DNA of 64,000 nucleotides from an uncultured Gammaproteobacteria bacterium (GCA_963759155.1 CAVWXX010000027.1:136144-200143), one strand, 5' to 3'. Counted from the stretch's first letter, positions 28,182 to 44,623 are shown. Numbers and translations: made by a program. Notes: generated from the letters alone by a model not told the origin.

Positions 28182-29696
28182 ATGAAAAAATCAATCAAAC
28201 TCAATTTCCCACGTATTGTCCTTCTCACTTTGCTAACCAGCATTGCACCAATAGCCAGCGCCTTTGATGCCGATCATCTGTCAGCCTTTACCGAAAGAGG
28301 CATGGAGCTATGGCACGTGCCGGGCATGTCAGTCGCCGTGATGAGTAAAGATGAGGTCGTTTTTCAGAAGGGTTTTGGTAAAACCGCGATAGAAAATGGG
28401 ACTGAGGTGGATGAGCACACTTTGTTTGCGATTGCATCGACTACCAAGGCAATGGTCGTAGCGGGTCTCCTGATGCTTGCTGACGAAGAAAAACTGTCAC
28501 TGGATGATCCGATCATCAAATATGTGCCTGAGTTGCACTTTGAAAACCCCATGCTTACGCAAAACTTGATGGTTCGTGATTTACTCGCGCATCGCACCGG
28601 TTTGCCATCCACCGACTACTGGTCATTTTTGCAAAATATGCCTTTGAATGAGCAGATTACACGCTTACGCAATGTGCCAAACCAGGCACCGGTGCGTACC
28701 CGTCTGATCTATCAAAATACGATGTTCGAAATAGCCGGCCTGTTGATCGAGCGACTGAGTGGTCAACGCTGGCATGATTTTCTGACAGAGCGTCTGTGGC
28801 ACCCCATTGGTATGCAGGAAACTTATGGTGAACGAGCACAGATCGGTGATGAACAAAGTCATGTTATGCCTTATCAGTACCATGAAGACCAGCTTGTTCT
28901 TGCGGACTGGGACTTTCCAGCCGATTTTGCCGATGCTGCGGGTTCAGTATGGTCTTCCATTCACGATATGAGTCTGTGGGCACAGTTTCTGTTACGTGAC
29001 GGTGTTACCAGCAGCGGTGACCGTTTGATTTCGGAGACGGCTATGCAGCAGATGTTTGAGCCACAGCAGCTTGCCAGTTCATCTGATTTTTACCCGACCG
29101 TTGAGCTCACCAGGCCCAACTGGCGCAGTTACGGCCTGGCCTGGTTTCAACAGGATTTTCAGGGCAGAAAAATTGATTTCCACACTGGCAGCCTTTCCGG
29201 TCTGATTGCCATTATCGGGCTGGACCGCGCCAACGACAAAGCGGTGGTGGTGCTGGGTAACCGTGATCATGCCGAGATGCGTCATGCGCTGATGTGGAAT
29301 GTGATGGACAATTCCACGGGTGATGATCGACGCGATTGGAACCAGGAGGTTTTTGACCTGTACGCAGGGCAAGCGGAGGAGCGCAAAGAGCATTGGAATG
29401 AAACCCGCAAGAAACGGCTTAAAAATACAAAGCCAAGCTTACCGAAGGCTTCCTATGCAGGAACTTACACTCATCCGTCTTTCGGTGAAATCCAGATCGA
29501 AAAGTCCGGTTCGGACATGGCCCTCAAGACCACGCTAATCGATTTCGAGATGAGCCACTGGCACCTCGATACCTACCTTGTGGAATACAAAACCTGGGAG
29601 ATGCATGAATTTGCGACTTTTAACATCAACCCTGAAGGTAACATCACCTCGGTTGATGTCATCGGTCACACGTTTGAGCGTGTGCCTGCGGAGTAA
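28182..29696 (+). CDS. serine hydrolase, beta-lactamase/PBP family
   Basis: 504 aa. Signal peptide (LLTLLTSIAPIASA) and SxxK motif IASTTKAM. Confidence 0.85.
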   Translation: MKKSIKLNFPRIVLLTLLTSIAPIASAFDADHLSAFTERGMELWHVPGMSVAVMSKDEVVFQKGFGKTAIENGTEVDEHTLFAIASTTKAMVVAGLLMLADEEKLSLDDPIIKYVPELHFENPMLTQNLMVRDLLAHRTGLPSTDYWSFLQNMPLNEQITRLRNVPNQAPVRTRLIYQNTMFEIAGLLIERLSGQRWHDFLTERLWHPIGMQETYGERAQIGDEQSHVMPYQYHEDQLVLADWDFPADFADAAGSVWSSIHDMSLWAQFLLRDGVTSSGDRLISETAMQQMFEPQQLASSSDFYPTVELTRPNWRSYGLAWFQQDFQGRKIDFHTGSLSGLIAIIGLDRANDKAVVVLGNRDHAEMRHALMWNVMDNSTGDDRRDWNQEVFDLYAGQAEERKEHWNETRKKRLKNTKPSLPKASYAGTYTHPSFGEIQIEKSGSDMALKTTLIDFEMSHWHLDTYLVEYKTWEMHEFATFNINPEGNITSVDVIGHTFERVPAE

Positions 29697-31416: not shown

Positions 31417-32049
31417 TCAGGAAACTATCCCATGCTTGACCGCATATTGGATTAATTCTGAATTGGATTTGACATCAAGGGTTTCCATGATCTGGTACTT
31501 ATGGAAAGCGACGGTCCTTGGCGTGATGTTCAATATTGCAGCGACCTGTTTCATCGTATTGCCCTCTGCAAGTAACTGCAGAACCTCGCGCTGGCGAATG
31601 GAAAGGTCACCGTGCACTTTATGAGTGCCCGGGTTTTTGATTTGCGCATCAGCCATGCTCTCGGCGAGTTTGGGCGAAACGTAAACCTTTGAATTAAGCA
31701 CAGCGTCGATGGCCTGAAATAACTCGGATGAGGCTGAACTCTTTAGCAGATACCCACTTGCCCCGATTCGTAAAGCCTCAGTCACCATGTCTGCATCTTC
31801 ATTGACGGTTAAAAAAACGAGCTTGGTGTCAGGCAGGATTTTTTTCAGTTTTTCGCCTGCGTCAAACCCGTTCAGGTTTGGCATGGCAATATCCATCAAG
31901 ACCAGGTCGGGAGCCAGTTTTGTGACCATTTTCAGCATCATGCGACCATCTGTCGCGGTTCCGACAATATCGTATTTTGTCTCAAGCAACTTACTGAATG
32001 CGTCCAGTAGAAGCGAGTGATCATCTGCTAAAAAAATGCGTGCACGCAT
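31417..32049 (-). CDS. response regulator transcription factor, NarL/LuxR type
   Basis: Receiver domain (DLVLMDIAMPNLNG) plus a LuxR-type HTH (LSIRQREVLQLLAEGNTMKQVAAILNITPRTV). Confidence 0.9.
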   Translation of the reverse strand: MRARIFLADDHSLLLDAFSKLLETKYDIVGTATDGRMMLKMVTKLAPDLVLMDIAMPNLNGFDAGEKLKKILPDTKLVFLTVNEDADMVTEALRIGASGYLLKSSASSELFQAIDAVLNSKVYVSPKLAESMADAQIKNPGTHKVHGDLSIRQREVLQLLAEGNTMKQVAAILNITPRTVAFHKYQIMETLDVKSNSELIQYAVKHGIVS

Positions 32050-32212
32050 TATTAAATATCCATGTTATTTCATCGCAATTGATACTATGCCATTTTGGGC
32101 CACTGACTGCACTACCCAAAACCGGGTATCGGATTAACTTTGACTCTGTTAAATAGTGAGTGCAACGATTATAGTCTGTATCTGTTCCCCGAAAGACAGC
32201 ATTTAAACCAGG

Positions 32213-32965
32213 ATGAATCTCGTGTCACAGTCTTCTGAAAAGCCAGAAACCGGATTAGGCCATATTCTTGTTGCCGAAGACGACGTGGTTGCCCAAATGG
32301 TCGTAAAGAAAATCGTTGAGCAGGCAGGTTATACGATGGACCTGGTTGGCGATGGTCAAGAGGCCGTCAAGGCACTCGAATCCGGGGATTATGATCTTGT
32401 ATTGATGGATTGTCTGATGCCCAGGATGAGCGGATTTGAAGCGAGTCAGATAATTCGCAATGCCGAATCCTCCGAGATCAATTCCAAGATTCCCATCATT
32501 GCGATGACGGGTTTGACGGAAGAGGAAGACCAGCAGCGCTGCATTGATGCCGGGATGTTTGAGGTGGTCAGTAAGCCATTTGGTCCAGAGGCACTGATTC
32601 CAGTGATCAGGCACTGCATGTCAAAAAATGAGGGAACAGATCTCGCATCAGAGCAGGCTGAAGTGGAAGAAAGTCAAACCTGGGACGATGGGTTTATCGA
32701 CAATGTCATTGATGAGTACCTGTCTGAAGTGCCACGTGTTATCGGTGACCTCCAACAAGCTATCGATGAAGCTGATGCAGACAAACTACGCCAGGTTGCC
32801 CATCGCTTTCGGGGGGCAACGGATTTCCTCAACGTTTCCGGGCTTTCCGCGCGTTCACGAGCCCTGGAGCACGCCGCTAGAGCAGGGGAAACCGAGCTGG
32901 CAATCACACACGCAACAGATTTAATAGAAGCCTTGCAAAAACTGTTGAATATGCTCACTGAGTAG
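32213..32965 (+). CDS. response regulator receiver domain fused to an Hpt phosphotransfer domain
   Basis: Receiver domain (ILVAEDD..., DLVLMDCLMPRMSG...KP), and a C-terminal Hpt motif AHRFRGATDFL. Confidence 0.8.
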   Translation: MNLVSQSSEKPETGLGHILVAEDDVVAQMVVKKIVEQAGYTMDLVGDGQEAVKALESGDYDLVLMDCLMPRMSGFEASQIIRNAESSEINSKIPIIAMTGLTEEEDQQRCIDAGMFEVVSKPFGPEALIPVIRHCMSKNEGTDLASEQAEVEESQTWDDGFIDNVIDEYLSEVPRVIGDLQQAIDEADADKLRQVAHRFRGATDFLNVSGLSARSRALEHAARAGETELAITHATDLIEALQKLLNMLTE

Positions 32966-32991: not shown

Positions 32992-33675
32992 CTATTGAAG
33001 TCCATTTTTTCGACTGACATAACGTTGTACGAATTTGACCAGAAGCTTTGCCAACAAGGGAAACGATGCCAGCAGGCATAAGGCGAGTATCAGGTCAGGT
33101 GAAAAAACCTCGGCGAAACTGAAGCTTTCGATATCACCCAGTTCATCACCCGTATAAGTGAGTATCAGCAATACCGGCATCATTCCGCAAAATGTCGCCA
33201 GCATGAAAACCGGAACCCGCATTGAAGTCAAACCCATGACGAGGTTCAGTAACCAGAACGGGATCACCGGAATCATTCTCAGGCCGAACAGATAAAAAGC
33301 GCCTTCTTTTTCAATACCCTTGTTAACCATTTCGATCTGACCTGTGAATCTTCTTTTGACCAGGTCGTAGAAAAGGAAGCGGGTGCTATAAAGCGCAACG
33401 GTTCCACCCAGCGTGGTGGCGGCGAGTGACAATGAAAATCCCGTCAGGGTGCCAAAGACGATACCACCGGCCAGGGTCAGAATTGCGGTAGCGGGTAACG
33501 AGCAACTGGTAGCGATAAAAAAAACGGTAAAAAAGACGGCAGCAGTTGCAACGGGTGAGCGTTCAAACAGCCCCTGGTACAGGTCGATACTGAAGTACTT
33601 TTCACCACCGCCAACAAAGTAGAGGATGATAATGGTGGCGATAAACAGCGCCAGGGCCAGCTTTTTTAGCGGCAT
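32992..33675 (-). CDS. TVP38/TMEM64 (DedA-related) family membrane protein
   Basis: 227 aa, multi-TM, with the family-typical G..FG.. and PVIPF segments. Confidence 0.7.
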   Translation of the reverse strand: MPLKKLALALFIATIIILYFVGGGEKYFSIDLYQGLFERSPVATAAVFFTVFFIATSCSLPATAILTLAGGIVFGTLTGFSLSLAATTLGGTVALYSTRFLFYDLVKRRFTGQIEMVNKGIEKEGAFYLFGLRMIPVIPFWLLNLVMGLTSMRVPVFMLATFCGMMPVLLILTYTGDELGDIESFSFAEVFSPDLILALCLLASFPLLAKLLVKFVQRYVSRKNGLQ

Positions 33676-33885
33676 ACTGATGTCTTATACATCCTTTTCT
33701 GTGTACGGGTGAACATCCCGTTGATAGAGGGAGCCAGTAGTATAGAAAGTATAAAAGGTCTTTGCCATGAAATCTGTACAACACGTTTGAATCATAAAAG
33801 GCTGCTTCTTGCACAAAATTGGACTCCCATTGTGGGTATGTTTCCAACATAATGTGTGCTGTCTTCAACCGGGAAAAATGATTAC

Positions 33886-34935
33886 ATGTCTAAGGTGTGG
33901 AGTTGTAATGAATGGGACCCATTGGAAGAGGTGATTGTTGGCAATCCGCTAAAGGCGCGGTTTCCCACAGCTGATTTAAGTACGCGGTTGGCGGAGTTCC
34001 CGGATCGCTCGCTGGCGGATATACCCCGGGGTCCATTTCCACAACAAATCATTGAGGAGACCGAAGAGGACCTGAATGCATTCGTTGAGGTTCTGCAGGC
34101 GCAGGGCGTCACGGTCAAACGTCCGGATACGTGGCCCCATGACAGGAAGTTTTCTACCATTCATTGGGAGTCTGAAGGCTACTACAACTACTGCCCCCGT
34201 GATGTCATGCTGGTCATCGGTGACACGATCATCGAAACACCCAACGTCATCCGTAGCCGTTACCAGGAAACCTTCAGCTATCGTTCATTGCTGATGGAGT
34301 ATTTGAAGTCGGGTGCAAAATGGTACAGCGCGCCAAAACCGATGCTGCTCGACTCGTTATTCGATGTTGATCTGGGCAAACCCACACCGCGTAATGATGA
34401 ACCGGCTTTTGATGCAGCGAATGTTCTGCGTCTTGGCCGGGACCTGATCTACCTGGTCAGTGCGACCGGTAATGAACTGGGCGGGCAATGGTTACAGACG
34501 ATGCTGGGTGATCAATTCCGGGTTCACTTTCTCAAAGATGTCTACTATGGCAGCCATATTGACTCAACATTCGTTGCCTTGCGGCCTGGATTGATACTCT
34601 GTAGCCCGGGTCGCGTTAACGACGATACCCTGCCGGAAGTTCTCAAGCAGTGGGAAGTGATTTACAGTCCGCCGATGGAGAATACAGGTGGATTCGATGC
34701 GGACTATCTTTCCAGGAGCATCGGCAGCAAGTGGATTGATATGAACCTGTTCAGTATTAATCCGAACCTGGTGGTGGTCGACCGCGATCAGACAGCGCTC
34801 ATTAAACTACTTGAGAAGCACGGTCTTGATGTGATTCCTTTGAAATTACGACATTCCAAAATGCTGGGTGGCGGTTATCATTGTGTAACGCTGGATACAC
34901 GACGAAAAGGAACGATGCAACGCTATTTCGATTGA
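33886..34935 (+). CDS. amidinotransferase (glycine/inosamine-phosphate amidinotransferase family)
   Basis: 349 aa counted from ATG 33886. N-terminal NEWDPLEEVIVG, the catalytic His context GSHIDSTF, and the catalytic Cys context GGGYHCVTLDTRR are all present. Confidence 0.85.
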   Translation: MSKVWSCNEWDPLEEVIVGNPLKARFPTADLSTRLAEFPDRSLADIPRGPFPQQIIEETEEDLNAFVEVLQAQGVTVKRPDTWPHDRKFSTIHWESEGYYNYCPRDVMLVIGDTIIETPNVIRSRYQETFSYRSLLMEYLKSGAKWYSAPKPMLLDSLFDVDLGKPTPRNDEPAFDAANVLRLGRDLIYLVSATGNELGGQWLQTMLGDQFRVHFLKDVYYGSHIDSTFVALRPGLILCSPGRVNDDTLPEVLKQWEVIYSPPMENTGGFDADYLSRSIGSKWIDMNLFSINPNLVVVDRDQTALIKLLEKHGLDVIPLKLRHSKMLGGGYHCVTLDTRRKGTMQRYFD

Positions 34936-34970: not shown

Positions 34971-37900
34971 ATGATGACAGCAATCAGCACGCTATCCGTC
35001 TTCCTGGCCTTTTTTTTATTGGCCTTCGCTGCGTGGCGACGCTACCTCTGGGTGGCGCAGAGGGAGTCTGATGCACAGGAAGATAACTGCCCATACAGTT
35101 TGACCGAAGTCTTTAGCGACAGGCATCTGATTAGCGTGCCGCACCAGAAGGGAGTGCGCTGGTTAACGGATGTCTTTAGTCGCTCCGCCAGAAAATTCCC
35201 CGATCATACCGCCTTGCAGATTCCCCATACGGGCGAGTCGCTGACCTACGCTGAACTTGACGAGCGTGCTGAACAAGTGGCTTTTGCGTTGTCACCCTAC
35301 CTGACTGGTCCTGACCAGGTCGTGGCAGTGGCCATGTCACAGGACAACTGGCAAATCGTTGCTTCCCACCTCGGTATTCTCAAGGCTGGCGGAACATTGA
35401 TGTTCCTCGACACCAGTCTGCCTGAAAGCCTGATTACCCACATGCTGGAAGACGCGAAGCCGGTGGTCATTCTTACCCGCGGTGAAGATAAGTTTCGCGA
35501 CCTGCCGACAGTGGATGTACTGAATTTGCCCAAAGAGAGGCCGCGCCGGGAGGCGCCACATTGGCTGGATGATCCTGAACAGCGGCTTGCAACCATTTTC
35601 TATACGAGTGGTTCTACCGGCATGCCAAAGGGCGTGGAGTGCCATCATGCGGGCTACGTTAACCTGGCACTAAGCTACGCTGATTATCTTGATCTCATAC
35701 CGGGTATGGATGCGACCACGTTGACGTCTTCACTGGGTTACGATGGCAGTATATCTGAGATGTACAGTGCCTGGGTGTCCGGCTGTGCGGTGGTTTTACT
35801 GACCTCAGATGAGGTCCGGTCCGGTCCTGACTTACTGCCGGTTCTTCGTGCAGCAGAGGTTACCGTTCTGTTCTGTCCGCCGGTGTTGCTGACCACACTG
35901 TCACATGAGCCGGAGGTGGATTTACCTTATCCCTTGTGCCGCTACATTATTCCGGCTGGTGAGGCGTTTCCCGCTGCACTGGTGGAGCCCTGGACCCGTG
36001 CCAGGCGGCAGGTGATTAATACCTATGGGCCTACAGAGGCGAGCACAGATACCAGCCGGCAGAGCTTGCGTCCGGGTGAGCCCGTTACGATCGGTTCGCC
36101 GTTGGCCAATGTCACCTACGTGATACTTGAGATCGACAAGCTCACGCCACTCCCACATGGCGAGACCGGTGAACTCTGTATCGGTGGTGTACATGTTGGT
36201 CGTGGCTACCGTAACCTGCCGGAGCAAACCTCCGCAAAGTTCATCACGCATCCGCAGTTTGGCCGGCTCTATCGCACGGGCGATAAATGTAAGATTGACG
36301 CTCACACACAACGCGTGCACTTCCTCGGCCGTATCGACACACAGCTCAAGGTTCGGGGACACCGTGTTGAAGTCCAGGCCGTTGAGGACATTCTGCAGAC
36401 TCAGATCCATGAGGTCGAGTCTGCTGTGCTTGATTATCAAAATGGGGAACTGGTCGCATTTGTCGTCGCGCCTTTGATTTCAAATCCAGAAATGCATAAT
36501 GCCGTCCCGGCCCCTGAGGCGTGGGCCGCCCGAACCACGGAAATTCTTGCGAGGCAACTGCCATCTCCATCGGTTCCTTCACGAATTTTTCTGGTCGACA
36601 ATTTTGTCATGAAACCCCTGTCAGGCAAGATTGACCGGGAACACTTACCCAACCTGTCCGGGCTGTTGAAGCGTGCAGGGGGGGATGCAAAGGATAGTTA
36701 TCACCCAATACAAAGCAGCCATCAGGACGAAGGGCAGGGCCCGGTTTCTGAAGTCAGCGCAGCCATCAAGCCAGGTGATAAGGAAGTGTTAGCGATCTGT
36801 CGACAGGTATTCGATACCCCACTGGGCTGGGATGATGTGTTTGCAGATAATGGCGGGCATTCGATCGTGATTGCCCAACTCGCTCAGCGGCTACAGGCTG
36901 CCGGGTGGCAGGTGCCGGTGCGCGCGCTTCTCAGTGATTGTGATACCGCACGTAAGATTGTCAATCGGCCAGGAGAGACGCAATCAACGACTGATTCACC
37001 TGCGAGCAGTGCTCACTTTGGGAAACATGGTGGTCAACGTGATGAGGTCGCAGCAAAAGTGTTATCCCCCGGGTATTTCACCATGCTGCAGGCGTTGTTC
37101 CTGGCATTATTATACGCACCGCCATTGGTCGGCTTTTTGGGGTTGGTCGCGTTCTCGGAAGTTGGCGAGTTCTTTATGACCGGCTTGCTTTGGGAGTTTA
37201 TTGCTGTTGGTTTCCTGATGTACCTGGTTGCCCTTGTCTATCCGTTTGCGAATTTACTCTGGATCATGTTCATCAAGCTTTGCATGGGGGGGCATATTTA
37301 CAGGAATAATGTGACACCGGGTGTGTACCCAAAGTGGAGCAGGATGCACCTTCGTACCTGGTGTGTCGGACGCTTGGAGCAGTCGGTGCTCCGACCAATG
37401 GGCACCTTTTTTCGCAGTGCGCCACTCATGGCATATGTTTTACGGCGACTTGGTGCGCGCGTGGGACGTAATCTCCAATGTGCCTCTGACGTAGAATTCT
37501 TCGGGCCGCTGGACTTACTCTCCATCGAAGATGATGTCGCTATTCAGGCGAGGGCCTATATTCACATGTTGAGATGGGTCGGGCAGGATTTGCATATCGG
37601 TCCCGTATACCTCGGCAGCGGTTGTAAGATCGGTATGCGTTCGGGGGTTGCCAACGATGTAACGGTCGGCCGTGGTAGCTGGATCACTCCATTCACACCC
37701 ATCCTTGGTGACGTGGGCGCAAATGAATTATGGGAAGGCTCTCCAGCCAGGCTCAGTGGCCGTTGCACGGCAATGAAACGCACCGCTAGCCACTGCCGGT
37801 ATACGTTGCCAATATGGCTACTGGAAACGCTGAACATTTTTATGCAGGTTTTCTTTGAATTCTGCCTTGTCGTTGTACCAACAGCCCTGGTTACCTGGTT

Positions 37901-39248
37901 TGCCACCAGTTTCATACCCGTCAGGGAGACGGCACAGGCGAGCGAATATTTCAAAATAACGCCATTGCAAGAAATCGTGTGGCACATGGGGCTTTATGCG
38001 TTTCTGACGACCTGGGTCAGCATCGTTTTGATCTCGATACTGGGTAGTGTCTTTTTGCGCTTCACGGCCGCGTCGCCAGGCTTGTATTCCTCACGTGGGC
38101 TCAAAACTGCTCTGTTGATGTACAGGATGAAAAAGCTGAACTGGATTCAACAACAGTGGACCTGGACCATTACCGGGCAGTATCTGCGCGCGCTCGCTGG
38201 CTTGCGTTTTACTCGGGTGGGTGCCTCGGAGTGCGACGTCATGTTCAATCTTGTCCCGGAAGCTGCCAGTGCCGATGCCAAGGTGTTCTGGTCCAATGGC
38301 TGTTTTACCAACATGCTGGATTACGGTGCTGAGCACACAGAGTTGCGCCAGCTTGATATGCCTTTGAATTTCTTTAGTGGCAATAACAGTGTGGCGGAGC
38401 ACGGACGTTTACCCGCCAATTTCCTGTTGGGCGTCTCGACACCGGTAAGTGAAATACAGTTCAGGCGACAAATGCAGTCGCGCCCGGGTGAGCCGCTCAC
38501 GGTTGCCGGAAACCCGCCATTAAGATTTGCGAACGCAGACCCTGGTGCGGAGTGTGAAGCTGACAGGCTACCGACCCTGCCATTATTCCTGGCGCGTGTT
38601 TTTCTGAACGACATTTTCAGTATCGGAATCCTGCGTATTGCCAATGTGCTTGTTTACGTGATTTTGTACAGTGCACTATTAAGACTGGGAGGACACGTTC
38701 TCCTTAGTGCCTTGATTGCCCTGGCGCTCACAGAGCTGACGTTGATCATGGCCTGTGTTGTGATCAAGAAGTTTCTCGTGGGGAGCCATTGGGGCTCGGA
38801 TCACTCAACTCCGTTCTGGTCCTGGCGGCACTTCAGTTATTTCTTCGCTCAGGATTGTTTCTTTGCCTGGTGCAGGATTTTCCTGAGATTTGCAGCTGGA
38901 ACCGTGCTGACGAATCCTGTCTTGAGGTGGATGGGCTGTAAAATTGGTAAACGAACCATTGTCAGTTCACCGATGCAGGCCTCCGATTGGAACGCGGTAA
39001 AATTTGGCAACGACTGTGTGGTTGCGGGCTTTCTGCAATTCCATACCTTTGAGAATATGACCTTGAAGTTGAAATTGACCGATATACAGGATGGCAGTGC
39101 CGTTAACTTTGGTGCCACGGTCATGGGTGGTGCAGTCATCGAATCAGAGACTAATCTGGAGCCATTGTGCATGGTTTTGAAGGAGATGCACCTACAGCCA
39201 GGTACTTACGAAGGCAGCCCCGCTGAACGGGTGGATAGTTACAGATGA
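34971..39248 (+). CDS. Pls/PosA-family membrane-embedded single-module NRPS (A-T plus three TM-flanked terminal domains)
   Basis: A-domain cores FYTSGSTGMPKGV, NTYGPTE, YRTGDK, GRIDTQLKVRGHRVE and PLSGKIDR. T domain DNGGHSIVIAQL. No C or TE domain. The C-terminal ~700 aa alternates hydrophobic helix pairs with three soluble hexapeptide-like segments. Confidence 0.85.
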   Translation: MMTAISTLSVFLAFFLLAFAAWRRYLWVAQRESDAQEDNCPYSLTEVFSDRHLISVPHQKGVRWLTDVFSRSARKFPDHTALQIPHTGESLTYAELDERAEQVAFALSPYLTGPDQVVAVAMSQDNWQIVASHLGILKAGGTLMFLDTSLPESLITHMLEDAKPVVILTRGEDKFRDLPTVDVLNLPKERPRREAPHWLDDPEQRLATIFYTSGSTGMPKGVECHHAGYVNLALSYADYLDLIPGMDATTLTSSLGYDGSISEMYSAWVSGCAVVLLTSDEVRSGPDLLPVLRAAEVTVLFCPPVLLTTLSHEPEVDLPYPLCRYIIPAGEAFPAALVEPWTRARRQVINTYGPTEASTDTSRQSLRPGEPVTIGSPLANVTYVILEIDKLTPLPHGETGELCIGGVHVGRGYRNLPEQTSAKFITHPQFGRLYRTGDKCKIDAHTQRVHFLGRIDTQLKVRGHRVEVQAVEDILQTQIHEVESAVLDYQNGELVAFVVAPLISNPEMHNAVPAPEAWAARTTEILARQLPSPSVPSRIFLVDNFVMKPLSGKIDREHLPNLSGLLKRAGGDAKDSYHPIQSSHQDEGQGPVSEVSAAIKPGDKEVLAICRQVFDTPLGWDDVFADNGGHSIVIAQLAQRLQAAGWQVPVRALLSDCDTARKIVNRPGETQSTTDSPASSAHFGKHGGQRDEVAAKVLSPGYFTMLQALFLALLYAPPLVGFLGLVAFSEVGEFFMTGLLWEFIAVGFLMYLVALVYPFANLLWIMFIKLCMGGHIYRNNVTPGVYPKWSRMHLRTWCVGRLEQSVLRPMGTFFRSAPLMAYVLRRLGARVGRNLQCASDVEFFGPLDLLSIEDDVAIQARAYIHMLRWVGQDLHIGPVYLGSGCKIGMRSGVANDVTVGRGSWITPFTPILGDVGANELWEGSPARLSGRCTAMKRTASHCRYTLPIWLLETLNIFMQVFFEFCLVVVPTALVTWFATSFIPVRETAQASEYFKITPLQEIVWHMGLYAFLTTWVSIVLISILGSVFLRFTAASPGLYSSRGLKTALLMYRMKKLNWIQQQWTWTITGQYLRALAGLRFTRVGASECDVMFNLVPEAASADAKVFWSNGCFTNMLDYGAEHTELRQLDMPLNFFSGNNSVAEHGRLPANFLLGVSTPVSEIQFRRQMQSRPGEPLTVAGNPPLRFANADPGAECEADRLPTLPLFLARVFLNDIFSIGILRIANVLVYVILYSALLRLGGHVLLSALIALALTELTLIMACVVIKKFLVGSHWGSDHSTPFWSWRHFSYFFAQDCFFAWCRIFLRFAAGTVLTNPVLRWMGCKIGKRTIVSSPMQASDWNAVKFGNDCVVAGFLQFHTFENMTLKLKLTDIQDGSAVNFGATVMGGAVIESETNLEPLCMVLKEMHLQPGTYEGSPAERVDSYR

Positions 39249-39397: not shown

Positions 39398-39781
39398 TTA
39401 TTCAACCATTCCACCTTCCCATAAGGAGGATTCACCACAGTTTGCAATTTTGAACAATTCATCATCTATTTCCACAAGCACGGATGTGTCGTAAGCATCT
39501 GTAAAAGCACCCCACTCAGCAAAATTAGGTGTGATTATCACAAATTTAAAATCAAACTCAGAGACTGCGGCAGCTACAGGGTGCCTGATTGCAATTTGTA
39601 GGTTTTCACCGCCTTTTAATGTTTTTGCTGCCTTGAGCCATTTGCTGGCCATGTTCATAACATCATCTTCGGTTGCATCACCTTCATAGGTGCAGTTAAA
39701 AATCTGTATTGTTTCTGAATAAACCGGAGCAGCAAAGACCATTAACATGGAAATAGCCATAACTCGTATCAAAGTTTTCAT
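39398..39781 (-). CDS. small secreted hypothetical protein
   Basis: 127 aa counted from ATG 39781, which has an AAGGAGA Shine-Dalgarno. Signal peptide MKTLIRVMAISMLMVFAAPVYS. GC is visibly lower than in the flanking genes. Confidence 0.55.
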   Translation of the reverse strand: MKTLIRVMAISMLMVFAAPVYSETIQIFNCTYEGDATEDDVMNMASKWLKAAKTLKGGENLQIAIRHPVAAAVSEFDFKFVIITPNFAEWGAFTDAYDTSVLVEIDDELFKIANCGESSLWEGGMVE

Positions 39782-40208
39782 CTCGTGGTTCTCCTTGGGG
39801 TACAAAAAATATTTCATGCTACGGGCCTTGAAGGGTGTTTACACCGCCCGGAATCGTAACGCTGATCAATTCGCTGACGTGTTTTATAATAAAGCAAAAC
39901 AAGCACTTTTGCTTCTAATCATTATATAGATGCAAGATTCACTGACCCGCCTTTTAGACAAGGGCGCCATGGCGAACAGCTCGTCCCAAAATATTTCTGT
40001 TGTCATCATTTGTACCTTGATCTAAGGTCGCAGGGCTTCATTTCAGGCGTTAATCTGAACCAGGCGATAATTGAGTGGATGCACTACCAAAGCACCTGCT
40101 GCCACGTGAAGGAGCACTAGCACCGTTAACATACAAATCAACGATATTTTTGCCAGCGGTTCGCGAAACCTGACACCGGCATCGGTGCCTGGGACCCATG
40201 TCCGGTAT

Positions 40209-40856
40209 ATGCCATTCAGGTCTGATCCGGTTTTTTCGAGTTTATGTGCTTCGGTGTTATCCACAGAAGAAATTCAAAGATCGGAGCGATTTTCGGGCGA
40301 GGCTGACAGGACCCATTTTCTGCAGCGTCGTGCGTTTCGGCGCTATTGCGGTGTCATCGCGCTTGACTCGCAACGGCCTTTATCAAAGGTCGTTTTTTGT
40401 GAAGCAAAAAATGGGCGACCTTTCATTTCTGATTTACCGGATCTCTGCTTTAGTTTTTCCTCCTGCCGACAGGGCTTCTTGGGGGCGTGGTCATTCAGCC
40501 ATGGGGTCGGTGTTGATATCGAAGATGACACCAGGGAACTTGAGGTTGCTGAACTTTCACAGCAGTATTTCCGGGGTTCTGAATCCTCAGTTATTGAAAC
40601 ATTCCAAGGTCTGCAGCGTCTGCGGGTTTTCTACCAATTCTGGTGCCTCAAGGAAGCTGCGCTGAAGTCTATCGGGGAGGGCTTGCCTTTTGGTCTGGAT
40701 ACGTTCGAATTTAAGCTAAAGCCAAATCTGCGTGTTGTTCGTGCGCCCGCCGGTCACGGCGGAGCAGGGCAATTTGAAGCCTGCCTGATCGAAGGGACTG
40801 ACAATTGTGCGGCGCTTGTCACCCGCAAACCTGCAATCTCTCCACTTTCGCCGTGA
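40209..40856 (+). CDS. 4'-phosphopantetheinyl transferase, Sfp type
   Basis: Motifs GRPF, FSFSSCRQG, GVDIED and FWCLKEAALKSIGEG. ATG at 40209; a GTG at 40185 is also possible. Confidence 0.8.
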   Translation: MPFRSDPVFSSLCASVLSTEEIQRSERFSGEADRTHFLQRRAFRRYCGVIALDSQRPLSKVVFCEAKNGRPFISDLPDLCFSFSSCRQGFLGAWSFSHGVGVDIEDDTRELEVAELSQQYFRGSESSVIETFQGLQRLRVFYQFWCLKEAALKSIGEGLPFGLDTFEFKLKPNLRVVRAPAGHGGAGQFEACLIEGTDNCAALVTRKPAISPLSP

Positions 40857-40863
40857 TTTCACT

Positions 40864-41685
40864 ATGACTCGTTCACCTTACATTGTCGACAACACCGATT
40901 GGCTTAAAACTGCCGCAATTATCCTGGTTACGATTGGCCACTTCGGTTATTTCTTCATTGAGAGCGCCGATTGGTGGAGTGTTGCCGGGCGTCTGGCGGC
41001 ACCGCCGTTCTTCTTCATGATTGGGTACGCGCGAAGCCGGACGATCCCGCTTCGTTGGATTGGGCTAGGGATTGCTCTGACCTTACTTGATAGCTGGAAC
41101 AATGATTGGGACTGGATGGCACTGAATATTCTTATAAGCTATGTGCTCATCCGGCTGATCCGCCCGAAGGTGCAGAATTTCCTGAAAGCATACCGATGGC
41201 TTGCTTTCGTGATCTTCATCGGCATACTTTTGGCCCTGCTGCCTCTATTCTCAAATGTTTTCGATTACGGCGCAGCAGGGTGGCTATGGGCTTTATTGGG
41301 CTTATGTCAGCGCATGTATCTTGAGCGTCGATCGCTTATCGATGATGTCGACACTTCCCAACGCCCATCTGCGGTCGTCTGCACAATACCTGAGAGCATA
41401 GGGCTGATGCGTCTGCTGGCATGCTTTGTTGCAGCCGTAGTTTACCTTTGGCATGAGCAGATCGAATTCTCGTTTACCGGGGTCCAGTTTACTGTTTTCC
41501 TTCTTGGCACCTGCCTGATGTCCTGGAGTCTGTGCCTGTTTCAACGTGCGCCGAGTCGTATCCAGCCAGGGAAATTCATGGGTAGTGCTTTGCACTTCAT
41601 CGGTCGGCACACGCTGGAACTTTATGCGATTCCGCTTGCCGGTTTCGAACTGATCATAGGATTGATACCTCAACTGGCCGGATGA
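40864..41685 (+). CDS. TraX-like polytopic membrane protein (putative acyl/acetyltransferase family)
   Basis: 273 aa. N-terminal WLKTAAIILVTIGHFGYFF and GRLAAPPFFFMIGY resemble TraX-family motifs. Starts 7 nt after the PPTase stop. Confidence 0.5.
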   Translation: MTRSPYIVDNTDWLKTAAIILVTIGHFGYFFIESADWWSVAGRLAAPPFFFMIGYARSRTIPLRWIGLGIALTLLDSWNNDWDWMALNILISYVLIRLIRPKVQNFLKAYRWLAFVIFIGILLALLPLFSNVFDYGAAGWLWALLGLCQRMYLERRSLIDDVDTSQRPSAVVCTIPESIGLMRLLACFVAAVVYLWHEQIEFSFTGVQFTVFLLGTCLMSWSLCLFQRAPSRIQPGKFMGSALHFIGRHTLELYAIPLAGFELIIGLIPQLAG

Positions 41686-41890: not shown

Positions 41891-44623
41891 CTAACGAACG
41901 GGTCTCGCATGTGCTGATCCACGCAGGATGGCATTCATAAAGATGACATTCAAGCCATCAAGATAGGCGCGTACATTCGGGTCCTGGGTAAAGCCGATCA
42001 CATATCCCTGGCCATTTTTTTGAGCCACGACAAATGGTTTGTAAGCCATTTGTTTCCGGTTCTGCTCCCACATGTAACCACTGGCAAGCAAATCATCTGC
42101 ATTGCCGAATACCGCGACATTGACACCCTTATCCATTTTCACCGGTGTATAAATGTCAGAACCCCTGACAAGTACATTCAGGGTAGGGGAGACACCTGCG
42201 CCAAGCCAGTGGTCAGGGTCGACGTTTGATTTGACCAGAACACCCGCCACTGAATCGGGGCTGCCTTTTTCCGGTGTGATGAGCGCCATGTAGTCATCGC
42301 TACTGGTCAGGTACTGGCCTTCAACAGTGGTTTCTTTCGATTTTTCATCGCCACCTTTACCATTTCCGTTGGATTTGACCTTTTCTTTATCCACTTCAAT
42401 AACCGCGTTCTCCCTGCGAATCGAGAGCAGGTCGATTTCGGGATTGGCCAGATAACGGTTGGCATTGCCAAGACCAATCAAAACACCGCCTTTTGCAACC
42501 CAGTCTTTCAGGTTGGCGGTGCCTTTTTCACCCAGTGCTTCTTCATAGTCACCACTCCAGCCAACTGCTGGCAGGATCAATACCTGGTAGCGGCTCAGGT
42601 CGGCCCTCTTAAGCTGATTCAAGCGGATCGCCGTCACGGGGAAGTCGAACTGCCGCTCGATGACAAAACGCGTGTTACCGGCGCTGTATGAAGAGGTGGG
42701 CTGATCCCAGGCGATAGCGACCCGGGGCGCATTGAACCTGACGACGTTTTCGCTGCCAAAATTCGGTCCGTCAGTGACCCAGCTGCTGTCGACCGATATC
42801 ACGGTGGCCCCGGTTGTTGCCGCAAGCTCAACGACGGTATCCGTCAGCGTATTGGAGTTATCCGCAACGTCGATGATCAGTGTGCCTGCCGGATAACGCT
42901 TGCCAGAATGTGTAAATGCCTTGTCAGAACTCTTGACATCAAGACCCTGCCTCAACGCGTTGGTCAAAAACCGGACGGCAGTGGCCGAGCCCCATGGCAC
43001 CAGGTAGGCAACCGGACCGCTTGCACCCGATACCTTGCCCGCTTGCACCAGTTCAGATCCCTGGGTGGTGAAGTTTCCGCTGATGCTGCGATTGCAGCTA
43101 TCGGCACGTACGTTCATCATCAGGGGCAGTGACCAGGCGGTTACGTCGTAAATTTCGTCTCTCAGGTTCTTGGCCCGACGGCGTTCCTGTTCAGCGAGGA
43201 AAGCTTTTTCCATCGGTACGTCGGTGTCCATCAGTGTGCGGATGAAGCGCTTTGCCGGCTGCGATGTGTTAATGACATAGCTGCCGGCCTTGTAGGATTC
43301 TCCACAGGCTTCGAAGGATGCGTCAGCACGTCCAACCTCGACACCCTGGCGAACCAACAGGCCAACCAGCTTGTTTGCCGCGGCCTGATCGAACTGCGTT
43401 GGCAGGATATAGGAGCGGATACTGTCGTTCTTTCCTTCTTCTATCGCACTGGCGCGGTAATTGTAAAAATCGGTAAGAAATTTCTGACGGTTTGTCACCA
43501 CCGCCTCAGCGGTGCTGAGTGATGTCACAAAGTGGTTGCGGATGGTGTAAGGGAAGCTTAAATCCTTGCCGTCATACTGCCTGACGATCAGCCCACGCGA
43601 TGACGCCTGTTCATAGGTCATGGAGATGCTGCCAAAGTACGACGGCCAGCTGGCACCATAGCCCGGATAAAACTCGTCAAATACCTCACGTGTGTAATAG
43701 TCCAGACCAAACGTATCAAACCAGCGGGCATTGTTTTGACCGAATATTTCGAGGCTTTCACGTTGGTTTGCAGCAAGGTGAGGGTTGTAAGGGGTGGCAC
43801 CTGGTGCAAAAAAGTAGGTGCTGTCCGAACCCATCTCGTGCGCGTCAACAAAGGCGACCGGATACCATTGCTGCAGGAGATCGACCCTGCCTTGTGTTTC
43901 CGGTTGTGTCAGGATGAACCAATCGCGATTCAGGTCGAAATAGTAGTGGTTGGTACGCCCGCCCGGCCAGGGCTCATTGTGTTCGGCGGAAAGCCTGTCC
44001 GAATCCGGCACCAGGCCTTCTGCAATCTCAAAGTGATGTATAAAGCGGTCACGGCCATCGGGGTTTTGCATCGGGTCAATCACAACGACGGTGTCGCGCA
44101 TGATATCGGCCACGCGCTTGTCACCGCGCGATGCAAGCAGGTGATAAGCGGTTAGCATGGCTGCTTCGGTGGATGAAATCTCGTTGCCATGAACACCGTA
44201 GGAGAGCCAGGTAATCGCAGGCTGGGTTTTGATGATCTCCTGTGCCTCGGCACGTGTGGTTTTGCGGGGATCAGCCAGGCGTTGCATATTGCTCTTGATC
44301 GTGTCGATACGGGCCATGTTCTCAGCGGATGTGACGACCGCATAAACAAGATCACGGCCCTCCCAGCTCTGTGCATAAGTCGCCACCGAGATACGCTCAG
44401 GTGAGGTTTCGGCAAGTGCTTCAAAATATCGGACCGCATCCGCATGCCAGGTGATACGTTCACCGGGCTCGTAGCCAAGGACAGCCTTGAAGGTGGGAAT
44501 GGCAGGGTCGTAATCTGCATCCGGCCAGTAAACAAAATCGTCACTGGCATTGCTGTAATTTGTAAACAGCAGACTGGCAAGAAGAATGAGGGTCATTCCG
44601 GTGCGTTGCAGAGTGGATTTCAT
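41891..44623 (-). CDS. secreted M14-family zinc carboxypeptidase-like protein
   Basis: 910 aa. Signal peptide and M14 zinc motif SYGVHGNEISSTE. Confidence 0.85.
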   Translation of the reverse strand: MKSTLQRTGMTLILLASLLFTNYSNASDDFVYWPDADYDPAIPTFKAVLGYEPGERITWHADAVRYFEALAETSPERISVATYAQSWEGRDLVYAVVTSAENMARIDTIKSNMQRLADPRKTTRAEAQEIIKTQPAITWLSYGVHGNEISSTEAAMLTAYHLLASRGDKRVADIMRDTVVVIDPMQNPDGRDRFIHHFEIAEGLVPDSDRLSAEHNEPWPGGRTNHYYFDLNRDWFILTQPETQGRVDLLQQWYPVAFVDAHEMGSDSTYFFAPGATPYNPHLAANQRESLEIFGQNNARWFDTFGLDYYTREVFDEFYPGYGASWPSYFGSISMTYEQASSRGLIVRQYDGKDLSFPYTIRNHFVTSLSTAEAVVTNRQKFLTDFYNYRASAIEEGKNDSIRSYILPTQFDQAAANKLVGLLVRQGVEVGRADASFEACGESYKAGSYVINTSQPAKRFIRTLMDTDVPMEKAFLAEQERRRAKNLRDEIYDVTAWSLPLMMNVRADSCNRSISGNFTTQGSELVQAGKVSGASGPVAYLVPWGSATAVRFLTNALRQGLDVKSSDKAFTHSGKRYPAGTLIIDVADNSNTLTDTVVELAATTGATVISVDSSWVTDGPNFGSENVVRFNAPRVAIAWDQPTSSYSAGNTRFVIERQFDFPVTAIRLNQLKRADLSRYQVLILPAVGWSGDYEEALGEKGTANLKDWVAKGGVLIGLGNANRYLANPEIDLLSIRRENAVIEVDKEKVKSNGNGKGGDEKSKETTVEGQYLTSSDDYMALITPEKGSPDSVAGVLVKSNVDPDHWLGAGVSPTLNVLVRGSDIYTPVKMDKGVNVAVFGNADDLLASGYMWEQNRKQMAYKPFVVAQKNGQGYVIGFTQDPNVRAYLDGLNVIFMNAILRGSAHARPVR

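Follow-up and report, generated by a model that had tools for sequence, protein, structure and literature searches.

A conserved clade of Pls/PosA-like membrane nonribosomal peptide synthetases with an adjacent amidinotransferase gene and a probable guanidino amino acid substrate

We analyzed a 64,000-nucleotide (nt) stretch of DNA from an uncultured Gammaproteobacteria bacterium (GCA_963759155.1 CAVWXX010000027.1:136144-200143), here called the window, whose positions are counted from its first letter on one strand. The gene under study encodes a nonribosomal peptide synthetase (NRPS) that resembles Pls, the epsilon-poly-L-lysine synthetase of Streptomyces albulus, and PosA, the delta-poly-L-ornithine synthetase of Acinetobacter baumannii, both of which make cationic homo-poly-amino acids (CHPAs). 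It is preceded by a gene for a StrB1-like amidinotransferase and followed by genes for a 4'-phosphopantetheinyl transferase (PPTase) and a TraX-like membrane protein (Table 1). This cassette, consisting of the amidinotransferase, the PPTase, a TraX or DUF418 protein, and usually SbnA and SbnB, has been conserved between phyla as well as in a sister clade, and it makes the clade of the window NRPS distinctive. A first-pass annotation, made from the sequence alone, had recognized the NRPS and was silent on the amidinotransferase, the TraX-like gene, and the conserved SbnA/SbnB cassette.

Table 1. Positions of the NRPS, its domains, and the associated genes in the window
Feature	Coordinates	Strand	Basis or remark
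Beta-lactamase-fold serine hydrolase with DUF3471	28182..29696	+	Pfam Beta-lactamase E 2.5e-57; membership uncertain
StrB1-like amidinotransferase, 359 amino acids (aa) from GTG	33856..34935	+	phmmer against PDB; stop 35 nt before NRPS start
Pls/PosA-like membrane NRPS, 1425 aa	34971..39248	+	N-terminal transmembrane (TM) helix, adenylation (A) domain, thiolation (T) domain, three-unit terminal domain
N-terminal TM anchor ending in AWRRYLW, aa ~5-27	34983..35051	+	hydropathy, conservation
A domain, aa 69-560	35175..36650	+	AMP-binding E 1.6e-61; TIGR01733 299.8 bits
T (carrier) domain, aa 605-665	36783..36965	+	PP-binding 29.6 bits, cutoff 20.8
Pls-type terminal domain, three units of TM pair + soluble segment	37068..39245	+	TIGR02353, hhalign, AlphaFold2
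Small secreted protein, 139-aa open reading frame (ORF), probable signal peptide MKTLIRVMAISMLMVFAAPVYS	39398..39817	-	recurs in cassette
Sfp/HetI-type PPTase	40185..40856	+	ACPS E 9.6e-16; NF042922 HetI E 1.1e-18
TraX-like polytopic membrane protein	40807..41685	+	Pfam TraX 30.9 bits, cutoff 25

The NRPS ORF starts at an ATG, and an exact-sequence look-up of its product found no identical protein on record. A Pfam scan placed the AMP-binding match at aa 69 to 413 and the PP-binding match (E 8.4e-07) over the T domain, in which motif position predicts Ser631 of GGHS (nt 36861-36863) as the site of phosphopantetheine attachment. A Hexapep match at aa 879 to 903 fell below threshold (23.8 bits; cutoff, 27). 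Pfam and NCBIfam scans of all 1425 aa found no condensation, epimerization, or thioesterase domain; they returned AMP-binding, PP-binding, Hexapep, and TIGR02353 only, in the order A-T-terminal domain seen in Pls and PosA. Hydropathy revealed one N-terminal TM helix followed by TM pairs at about aa 706 to 760, 951 to 1030, and 1212 to 1266, and the AlphaFold2 model agreed with it on the six helices in three pairs typical of Pls and PosA. The ORF, domain content, and N-terminal helix given in the first-pass annotation were thereby confirmed, and all the motifs that it quoted were found in place. The N-terminal helix, with its AWRRYLW motif, was kept in 52 of 56 full-length clade members, and the N-terminal hydropathy maximum was 2.17 in the window NRPS versus at most 1.53 in canonical relatives. 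This anchor is a clade-specific extra helix, beyond the six of the canonical relatives examined.

The model of the Pls/PosA terminal domain, TIGR02353, matched aa 749 to 1418 along profile positions 37 to 695 of 695 (E 4e-43). The earlier assignment to this family is thus borne out by a match along the profile, although the score of 147.7 bits misses the curated cutoff of 423.1 bits, which is NCBI's threshold for the name "Pls/PosA family NRPS"; A. baumannii PosA scored 725.2 bits, and the intermediate Pls-like relatives tested scored 233 to 366 bits. When a profile of 57 clade members was aligned with 17 canonical-type relatives by hhalign, 621 columns spanning all three units were matched (probability 100%, E 2e-62). 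The whole NRPS was also collinear with an A. baumannii PosA-type protein in BLASTP (25% identity, 1407 columns, E 6e-82). As judged by these comparisons, the terminal domain is homologous to the Pls/PosA polymerizing domain over its whole length. The results agree with the initial description of a membrane-embedded, single-module NRPS of Pls/PosA architecture that probably takes a cationic substrate.

Since the C-terminal domain has no sequence match in the PDB, its structure was taken from AlphaFold2 and Foldseek. In the model of aa 691 to 1425 (predicted template modeling score, 0.74; mean predicted local distance difference test score [pLDDT], 67), units 1 and 3 each comprised a TM pair, helices, and a segment modeled as a left-handed beta-helix. 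The best PDB fold matches were hexapeptide-repeat maltose and galactoside O-acetyltransferases (E ~1e-3; target TM-score, 0.5 to 0.6), in agreement with the model of PosA described previously (PMC10522769). Because these are acetyltransferases and not transporters, and because homology to the family terminal domain was found, the thought that this region might prove to be an unrelated transporter does not hold. By hhalign, unit 1 matched unit 3 (probability 95.5%, E 1.5e-8), and the unit 2 profile had no detectable similarity to either, so that the internal repeat could be seen between units 1 and 3 only. Unit 2 aligned confidently by hhalign to the hexapeptide-patterned middle unit of canonical enzymes and would, by homology only, be the middle Pls-type block. 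The three successive blocks proposed at first therefore stand as three TM pairs with similar beta-helices in units 1 and 3, but not as three units of detectable mutual similarity.

Relatives were collected by scanning the GTDB species at one genome each, which gave 166 NRPS relatives, and the best 80 loci were examined; neighbor-gene counts below cover only loci with enough flank. The hosts of the best 80 were Gamma-, Alpha-, and Betaproteobacteria, Desulfobacterota, Acidobacteriota, Verrucomicrobiota, Nitrospirota, and Bacteroidota, and across at least six phyla their terminal domains were about 58 to 94% identical to that of the window NRPS. The closest relative, in an uncultured gammaproteobacterial metagenome-assembled genome (MAG; locus L001), was 93% identical and syntenic with the window. 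An exhaustive search of 1.84 billion representatives yielded 907 terminal-domain relatives, which fell into tiers of at least 50% identity for the clade itself, 36% for the sister protein P0126, and 25 to 30% for other Pls-like proteins of about 1300 aa. In a plasmid collection there was no close member; all matches were below 60% identity, with at most about 36% among the matches listed. The GC content of the core followed that of the host flank (r 0.65; mean difference, 0.000), and the window showed no GC island signature, so the high conservation reflects constraint and not a very recent sweep. Strong conservation of this kind suggests a physiological role (envelope, charge balance, or metal/mineral interaction) rather than that of a niche antibiotic. 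Members of the clade are annotated only as "AMP-binding protein" or "hypothetical," and cultured carriers include Delta proteobacterium NaphS2 (L021) and Mesorhizobium sp. BAC0120 (L069).

The specificity code of the A domain was anchored on a GrsA fragment verified to be 100% identical to 1AMU. The code of the window NRPS was DGSFIATTDK, and the clade consensus in a broader alignment was DGSFVATTDK; 52 of 56 members carried DGSF(V/I)AT..K, and the other 4 carried DGPFVAT..K. The Asp predicted at GrsA position 235 in the first-pass annotation was present in the alignment to the verified fragment, and the second predicted Asp, at position 331, was recovered both in the broader alignment and in a pairwise alignment with PosA but depends on the alignment. 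In PosA, Glu221 (code position 3) is essential for binding of the side-chain amine and is "conserved in all CHPAs"; in the crystal, Ser313 lies 2.6 Å from the terminal amine of the substrate, and Met218, a chain-length determinant, lies 3.9 Å from C-delta (PMC10522769). The pairwise alignment places Gly at M218, Ser at E221, and Asp at S313. With these three replacements, the acidic residue would have moved to position 9 and the pocket would have opened. At position 3, the window NRPS and 52 of 56 clade members have Ser and the other 4 have Pro, whereas all other relatives aligned have Glu (DAESIGTVVK, DMEHNGTVSK in PosA, DFECNGTVTK, and DSECYGGVTK). No DGSF-type code occurs in the supplementary tables of the PosA paper (PMC10522769). 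As aligned, the predicted pocket hardly varies within the clade and is unlike that of every characterized CHPA synthetase. A correlated shift in the code was looked for among members with the DGPF variant and among those without the amidinotransferase, and none was found. An apparent special similarity to the Gly-activating LgrA was rejected, as its 362-bit match is the sum over two matched A domains.

The gene directly upstream of the NRPS gene had no Pfam or NCBIfam match above threshold. In a phmmer search of the PDB, its product matched 1BWD, the inosamine-phosphate amidinotransferase StrB1, from end to end (E 6.9e-111; aa 16-357 to 6-346) and AGAT (1JDW) at an E of 2.2e-61. The gene is intact: the catalytic Cys (GGGYHC) and His (GSHIDST) and the FDAANV segment, which holds the Asp, all aligned with StrB1, as expected of an enzyme of the StrB1/AGAT kind. 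Translation probably begins at the ATG at 33886, for a product of 349 aa, as the sister-clade orthologue starts at this point. In 55 of 59 loci, the NRPS gene directly followed an amidinotransferase gene in the same orientation, whose product was 74 to 94% identical to that of the window.

Unbiased clustering of neighbor ORFs revealed two further genes upstream of the amidinotransferase gene, SbnA in 38 of 51 loci and SbnB in 37 of 51. Against the models TIGR03944 and TIGR03945, the SbnA match scored 341.8 bits (cutoff, 349.95) and the SbnB match scored 403 bits (cutoff, 326.9). SbnA and SbnB together form the L-2,3-diaminopropionate synthase of the staphyloferrin B pathway, where they are linked with a siderophore synthetase; in the present clade, their neighbors are the genes of an amidinotransferase and a Pls-like NRPS. 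In the searchable literature, which leaves most subscription journals outside it, we found no description of a Pls-like NRPS paired with an amidinotransferase or with SbnA and SbnB, and no report of the biosynthesis of 2-amino-3-guanidinopropionate. Nor did the literature searched describe an amidinotransferase that acts on 2,3-diaminopropionate (Dap) or partners a Pls-type enzyme. StrB1-like enzymes that supply guanidino amino acids to NRPSs are known, since McyK and AmtA make homoarginine (PMC12283262).

The sister clade offers a comparison at greater distance. Its protein P0126 has the code DGSFVATTDK, and the sister locus L082, with a terminal domain 36% identical to that of the window NRPS and the same code, carries an amidinotransferase gene directly upstream whose product is 72% identical to that of the window. 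This locus also contains SbnB (330 bits), a contig-truncated SbnA, DUF418, and a homolog of the small secreted protein. In the available short flanks of three canonical loci, namely, those of PosA (L081), the DSECYGGVTK-type relative P0236 (L083), and the DFECNGTVTK-type relative P0230 (L084), none of the cassette genes was found. Because the sister locus keeps the cassette and the canonical loci are without it, the link between the pocket, the amidinotransferase, and the Dap genes is lineage specific and has withstood deep divergence.

We give about an even chance to the explanation that the NRPS belongs to a distinct, deeply conserved Pls/PosA-like clade that forms one system with a cotranscribed amidinotransferase and that activates a guanidino amino acid, which is then oligomerized or transferred at the membrane. 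The guanidino amino acid is probably an amidinated Dap, and the product is probably a new guanidinium-rich cationic compound. The amidinotransferase would move the amidino group of arginine to a diamino acid, most likely converting the L-2,3-diaminopropionate supplied by SbnA and SbnB to L-2-amino-3-guanidinopropionate; in the window organism, SbnA and SbnB would be encoded elsewhere in the genome, if at all. The A domain would then activate this amino acid, with Asp at position 9 and Phe at position 4 binding the guanidinium, the Phe perhaps by stacking, and with Gly and Ser at positions 2 and 3 making room for a head group that is planar and wider than that of ornithine at a similar reach. 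The T domain, primed by the PPTase, would hold the amino acid as a thioester, and the cytoplasm-facing beta-helix terminal domain would join the units iteratively and pass the product out through the six-helix bundle. The outcome would be a secreted guanidinium-rich cationic oligomer or polymer, which the TraX/DUF418 partner and nearby hydrolases may modify, export, or trim. The amidinotransferase context argues for a guanidino substrate over a plain diamino-acid isopeptide polymer. Less likely than not is the more specific proposal that the units of the oligomer or polymer are L-2-amino-3-guanidinopropionate, joined by alpha-peptide or acyl-guanidine bonds into a "polyarginine" of short side chains whose repeat is 128.07 Da.

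Several observations weigh against the guanidino reading. A beta-guanidinylated Dap has no free side-chain amine, and therefore the isopeptide chemistry of Pls and PosA could not operate; an alpha-peptide or other linkage would be needed, which is unproven for a Pls-type terminal domain. The clade code matches no characterized A domain, Gly and Ser at positions 2 and 3 leave equal room for arginine, and the code residues at GrsA positions 330 and 331 vary with the placement of a 3-residue deletion after YGPTEAS, which is what makes them alignment dependent. The nearest solved amidinotransferase uses inosamine phosphate and not an amino acid. Three Desulfobacterota MAG loci (L005, L006, and L010) keep the standard code with no intact amidinotransferase nearby; remnants of 45 to 70 aa lie upstream in L006 and L010, and L005 shows no match, so that the gene is lost or relocated in these three. 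Neither SbnA nor SbnB occurs in the 64-kb window, and both are absent nearby in 12 of 51 loci, including that of the closest relative, L001, which makes the link to Dap indirect for the window genome. Finally, the soluble part of unit 2 (aa ~1080-1198) has no usable AlphaFold2 model (pLDDT, <40).

The synthetases of beta-poly-L-diaminopropionate and gamma-poly-diaminobutyrate (PDAP/PDAB) share the Pls-type architecture and a link to the Dap precursor with the window system. Dap might be activated unmodified by a canonical CHPA synthetase: the A domain would take L-Dap or another diamino acid, an isopeptide polymer would form as with the beta-poly-Dap synthetases, and its alpha-amines, its terminus, or a T-bound intermediate would be guanidinylated late. 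We consider this route unlikely. It accords with the presence of SbnA and SbnB in the cassette at about 75% of loci and with the habits of StrB1-type amidinotransferases, which take bulky acceptors. It would also retain the isopeptide chemistry known for the family (PMC10522769). The pocket, however, argues against it: characterized polymerases of Dap and diaminobutyrate (Dab) have Phe at position 2 and an essential Glu at position 3 (PMC10522769), as does the PDAP/PDAB-type relative P0230 (DFECNGTVTK), whereas the clade has Gly and Ser (Pro in four loci). The pocket of the clade also looks too open for Dap and is without the residue known to bind its amine. At the P0230 locus L084 (5765-8412), a membrane acyltransferase of the MBOAT (DltB) family and an unannotated 345-aa gene follow the synthetase, and there is no amidinotransferase; this makes it a second locus at which a Pls-like synthetase and a membrane acyltransferase go together.

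Homologs of the Bdellovibrionales type (DSECYGGVTK) are among the nearest nonclade relatives of the window terminal domain, at 25 to 28% identity. They differ from the window NRPS in having Glu at position 3 and no N-terminal TM helix, their TIGR02353 scores are 338 to 366 bits, and the one locus examined had no amidinotransferase. An Asp at code position 9, as in the window code, is typical of arginine and ornithine codes. The A domain might thus take L-arginine, or else L-homoarginine that the amidinotransferase produces from lysine; Dap would then be a primer, an acceptor, or unrelated. McyK and AmtA set a precedent for such a system, and the nearest relatives of the Glu239 type share the code DSECYGGVTK. 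The Bdellovibrionales representative of this code weakly activates L-arginine, and Gly at position 2 predicts a long substrate (PMC10522769); the substrate of the Bdellovibrionales-type homologs is probably larger than a diamino acid. We nevertheless find this explanation improbable, in that the amidinotransferase would be superfluous for arginine, the retention of SbnA and SbnB, sister clade included, would be left unexplained, and the clade code is unlike reported arginine and homoarginine signatures such as DVESIGGVTK.

The window NRPS was further compared with PosA and Pls. PosA resembles the window NRPS in its three TM pairs, its beta-helix soluble domain, and the Asp and Thr at code positions 1 and 7, respectively. 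It differs in its code (DMEHNGTVSK versus DGSFIATTDK), with an acid in the window NRPS at the Ser313 site, and in lacking the N-terminal TM helix. PosA also forms a single-gene operon (PMC10522769), whereas the window NRPS belongs to a conserved cassette with the amidinotransferase, PPTase, and TraX genes. The domain architecture of Pls is that of the window NRPS, whose A domain matched the Pls A domain (7WEW) at an E of 5.3e-37; generic NRPS A domains, such as those of TycA and GrsA, scored above it. Relatives of the Lys type (DAESIGTVVK) were among the 25 to 30% identical matches. Pls has Ala at position 2 and Glu at position 3 (PMC10522769), where the window NRPS has Gly and Ser, and no amidinotransferase partner is reported for Pls, whereas the window NRPS adjoins one. 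Novelty had earlier been seen in the distance of the window organism from actinomycete and fungal producers. That argument is weak, since PosA is gammaproteobacterial and uncharacterized PosA homologs have been reported in many phyla (PMC10522769). The enzyme kind is known; what is new in the clade is a pocket that breaks the Glu rule, a near-obligate amidinotransferase, frequent SbnA and SbnB, and the N-terminal membrane anchor.

Downstream of the NRPS, 44 of 60 loci encoded a TraX or DUF418 membrane protein. In certain sequences from Acidobacteriota and metagenomes, such a protein is fused to the C terminus of the NRPS (P0066 and P0111 with PF05857, TraX; P0113 with PF04235, DUF418), and the NRPS ORFs of L016 and L031 are fusions of about 1700 aa. 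These fusions are an argument that the synthetase and this type of membrane protein are directly coupled in function. They also bring to mind a Dlt-like surface modification, in which the A and T domains would load one cationic amino acid and the terminal domain and TraX/DUF418 protein would move single units to a lipid or envelope acceptor, altering surface charge. The conserved and sometimes fused membrane partner, the MBOAT gene that follows the PDAP/PDAB-type relative, and a cross-phylum conservation so high that it suits a physiological role better than an antibiotic would all be in keeping with such a system. Yet the terminal domain is homologous from end to end with proven polymerases, TraX and DUF418 are both absent nearby in 16 of 60 loci, and the cassette holds no conserved genes for acceptor synthesis. 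We judge a Dlt-like system to be quite improbable.

To our knowledge, few CHPAs are known (poly-Lys, -beta-Lys, -Orn, -Dab, and -Dap), and all are built from diamino acids under one pocket rule; epsilon-polylysine is an industrial food preservative. If the guanidino reading is true, the product of the clade would be a natural polymer of a new, guanidinium-rich class with chemical kinship to cell-penetrating oligo-arginines, and the range of Pls-type terminal-domain function would be wider. A polyguanidinium peptide would mean both a new biopolymer and new domain chemistry in bacteria that live in soils and sediments and belong to at least six phyla.

Among the other cassette genes, the PPTase belongs to the ACPS superfamily (PF01648, 58.2 bits; cutoff, 25) and lay downstream of the NRPS in 37 of 60 loci. 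Its start had been placed at 40209, and the longest ORF begins at 40185. With the longest starts, the last 50 nt of the PPTase ORF (40807-40856) are shared with the TraX-like ORF, a sign that either the two are translationally coupled or TraX truly starts later. The 139-aa small secreted protein had no Pfam or NCBIfam match; its homologs adjoin the NRPS in 17 to 21 of 80 loci, and the one in the sister locus L082 (6416-6796) is 30% identical. Its role could be that of a binding protein, an immunity protein, or a chaperone. An S41-type peptidase was encoded in 32 of 60 loci and was seen in 35 loci in all. Homologs of the beta-lactamase-fold hydrolase were found in 10 loci, at a median offset just upstream of the amidinotransferase; in the window, four unrelated genes separate this hydrolase from the cassette. 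Either the hydrolase or the S41 peptidase could process or degrade the product.

An Rfam scan of the whole window found no riboswitch family, guanidine or other, at gathering score, and promoter and terminator consensus scans gave fewer matches than in shuffles. The DedA/VTT gene, two response regulators, and the M14 peptidase were excluded as parts of the cassette, as they are common only to the closest relative or to a few loci. Upstream, divergent genes at 31417-32965 and 32992-33675 encode a LuxR-type response regulator, a receiver-Hpt protein, and a DedA/VTT membrane protein, which may be local regulators and not cassette parts. Two paralogous NRPS copies, tandem or nearby, were seen in the alphaproteobacterial loci L023 (7940-12331 and 12504-16787), L046, and L049; both copies belong to the clade, are 68 to 71% identical to the window protein, and have the same pocket motifs. 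Just downstream of TraX in the window, a gene on the minus strand (41891-44623) encodes a secreted M14 zinc carboxypeptidase-like protein of 910 aa. This protein is shared only with the closest relative, L001, where it is apparently frameshifted into three ORFs.

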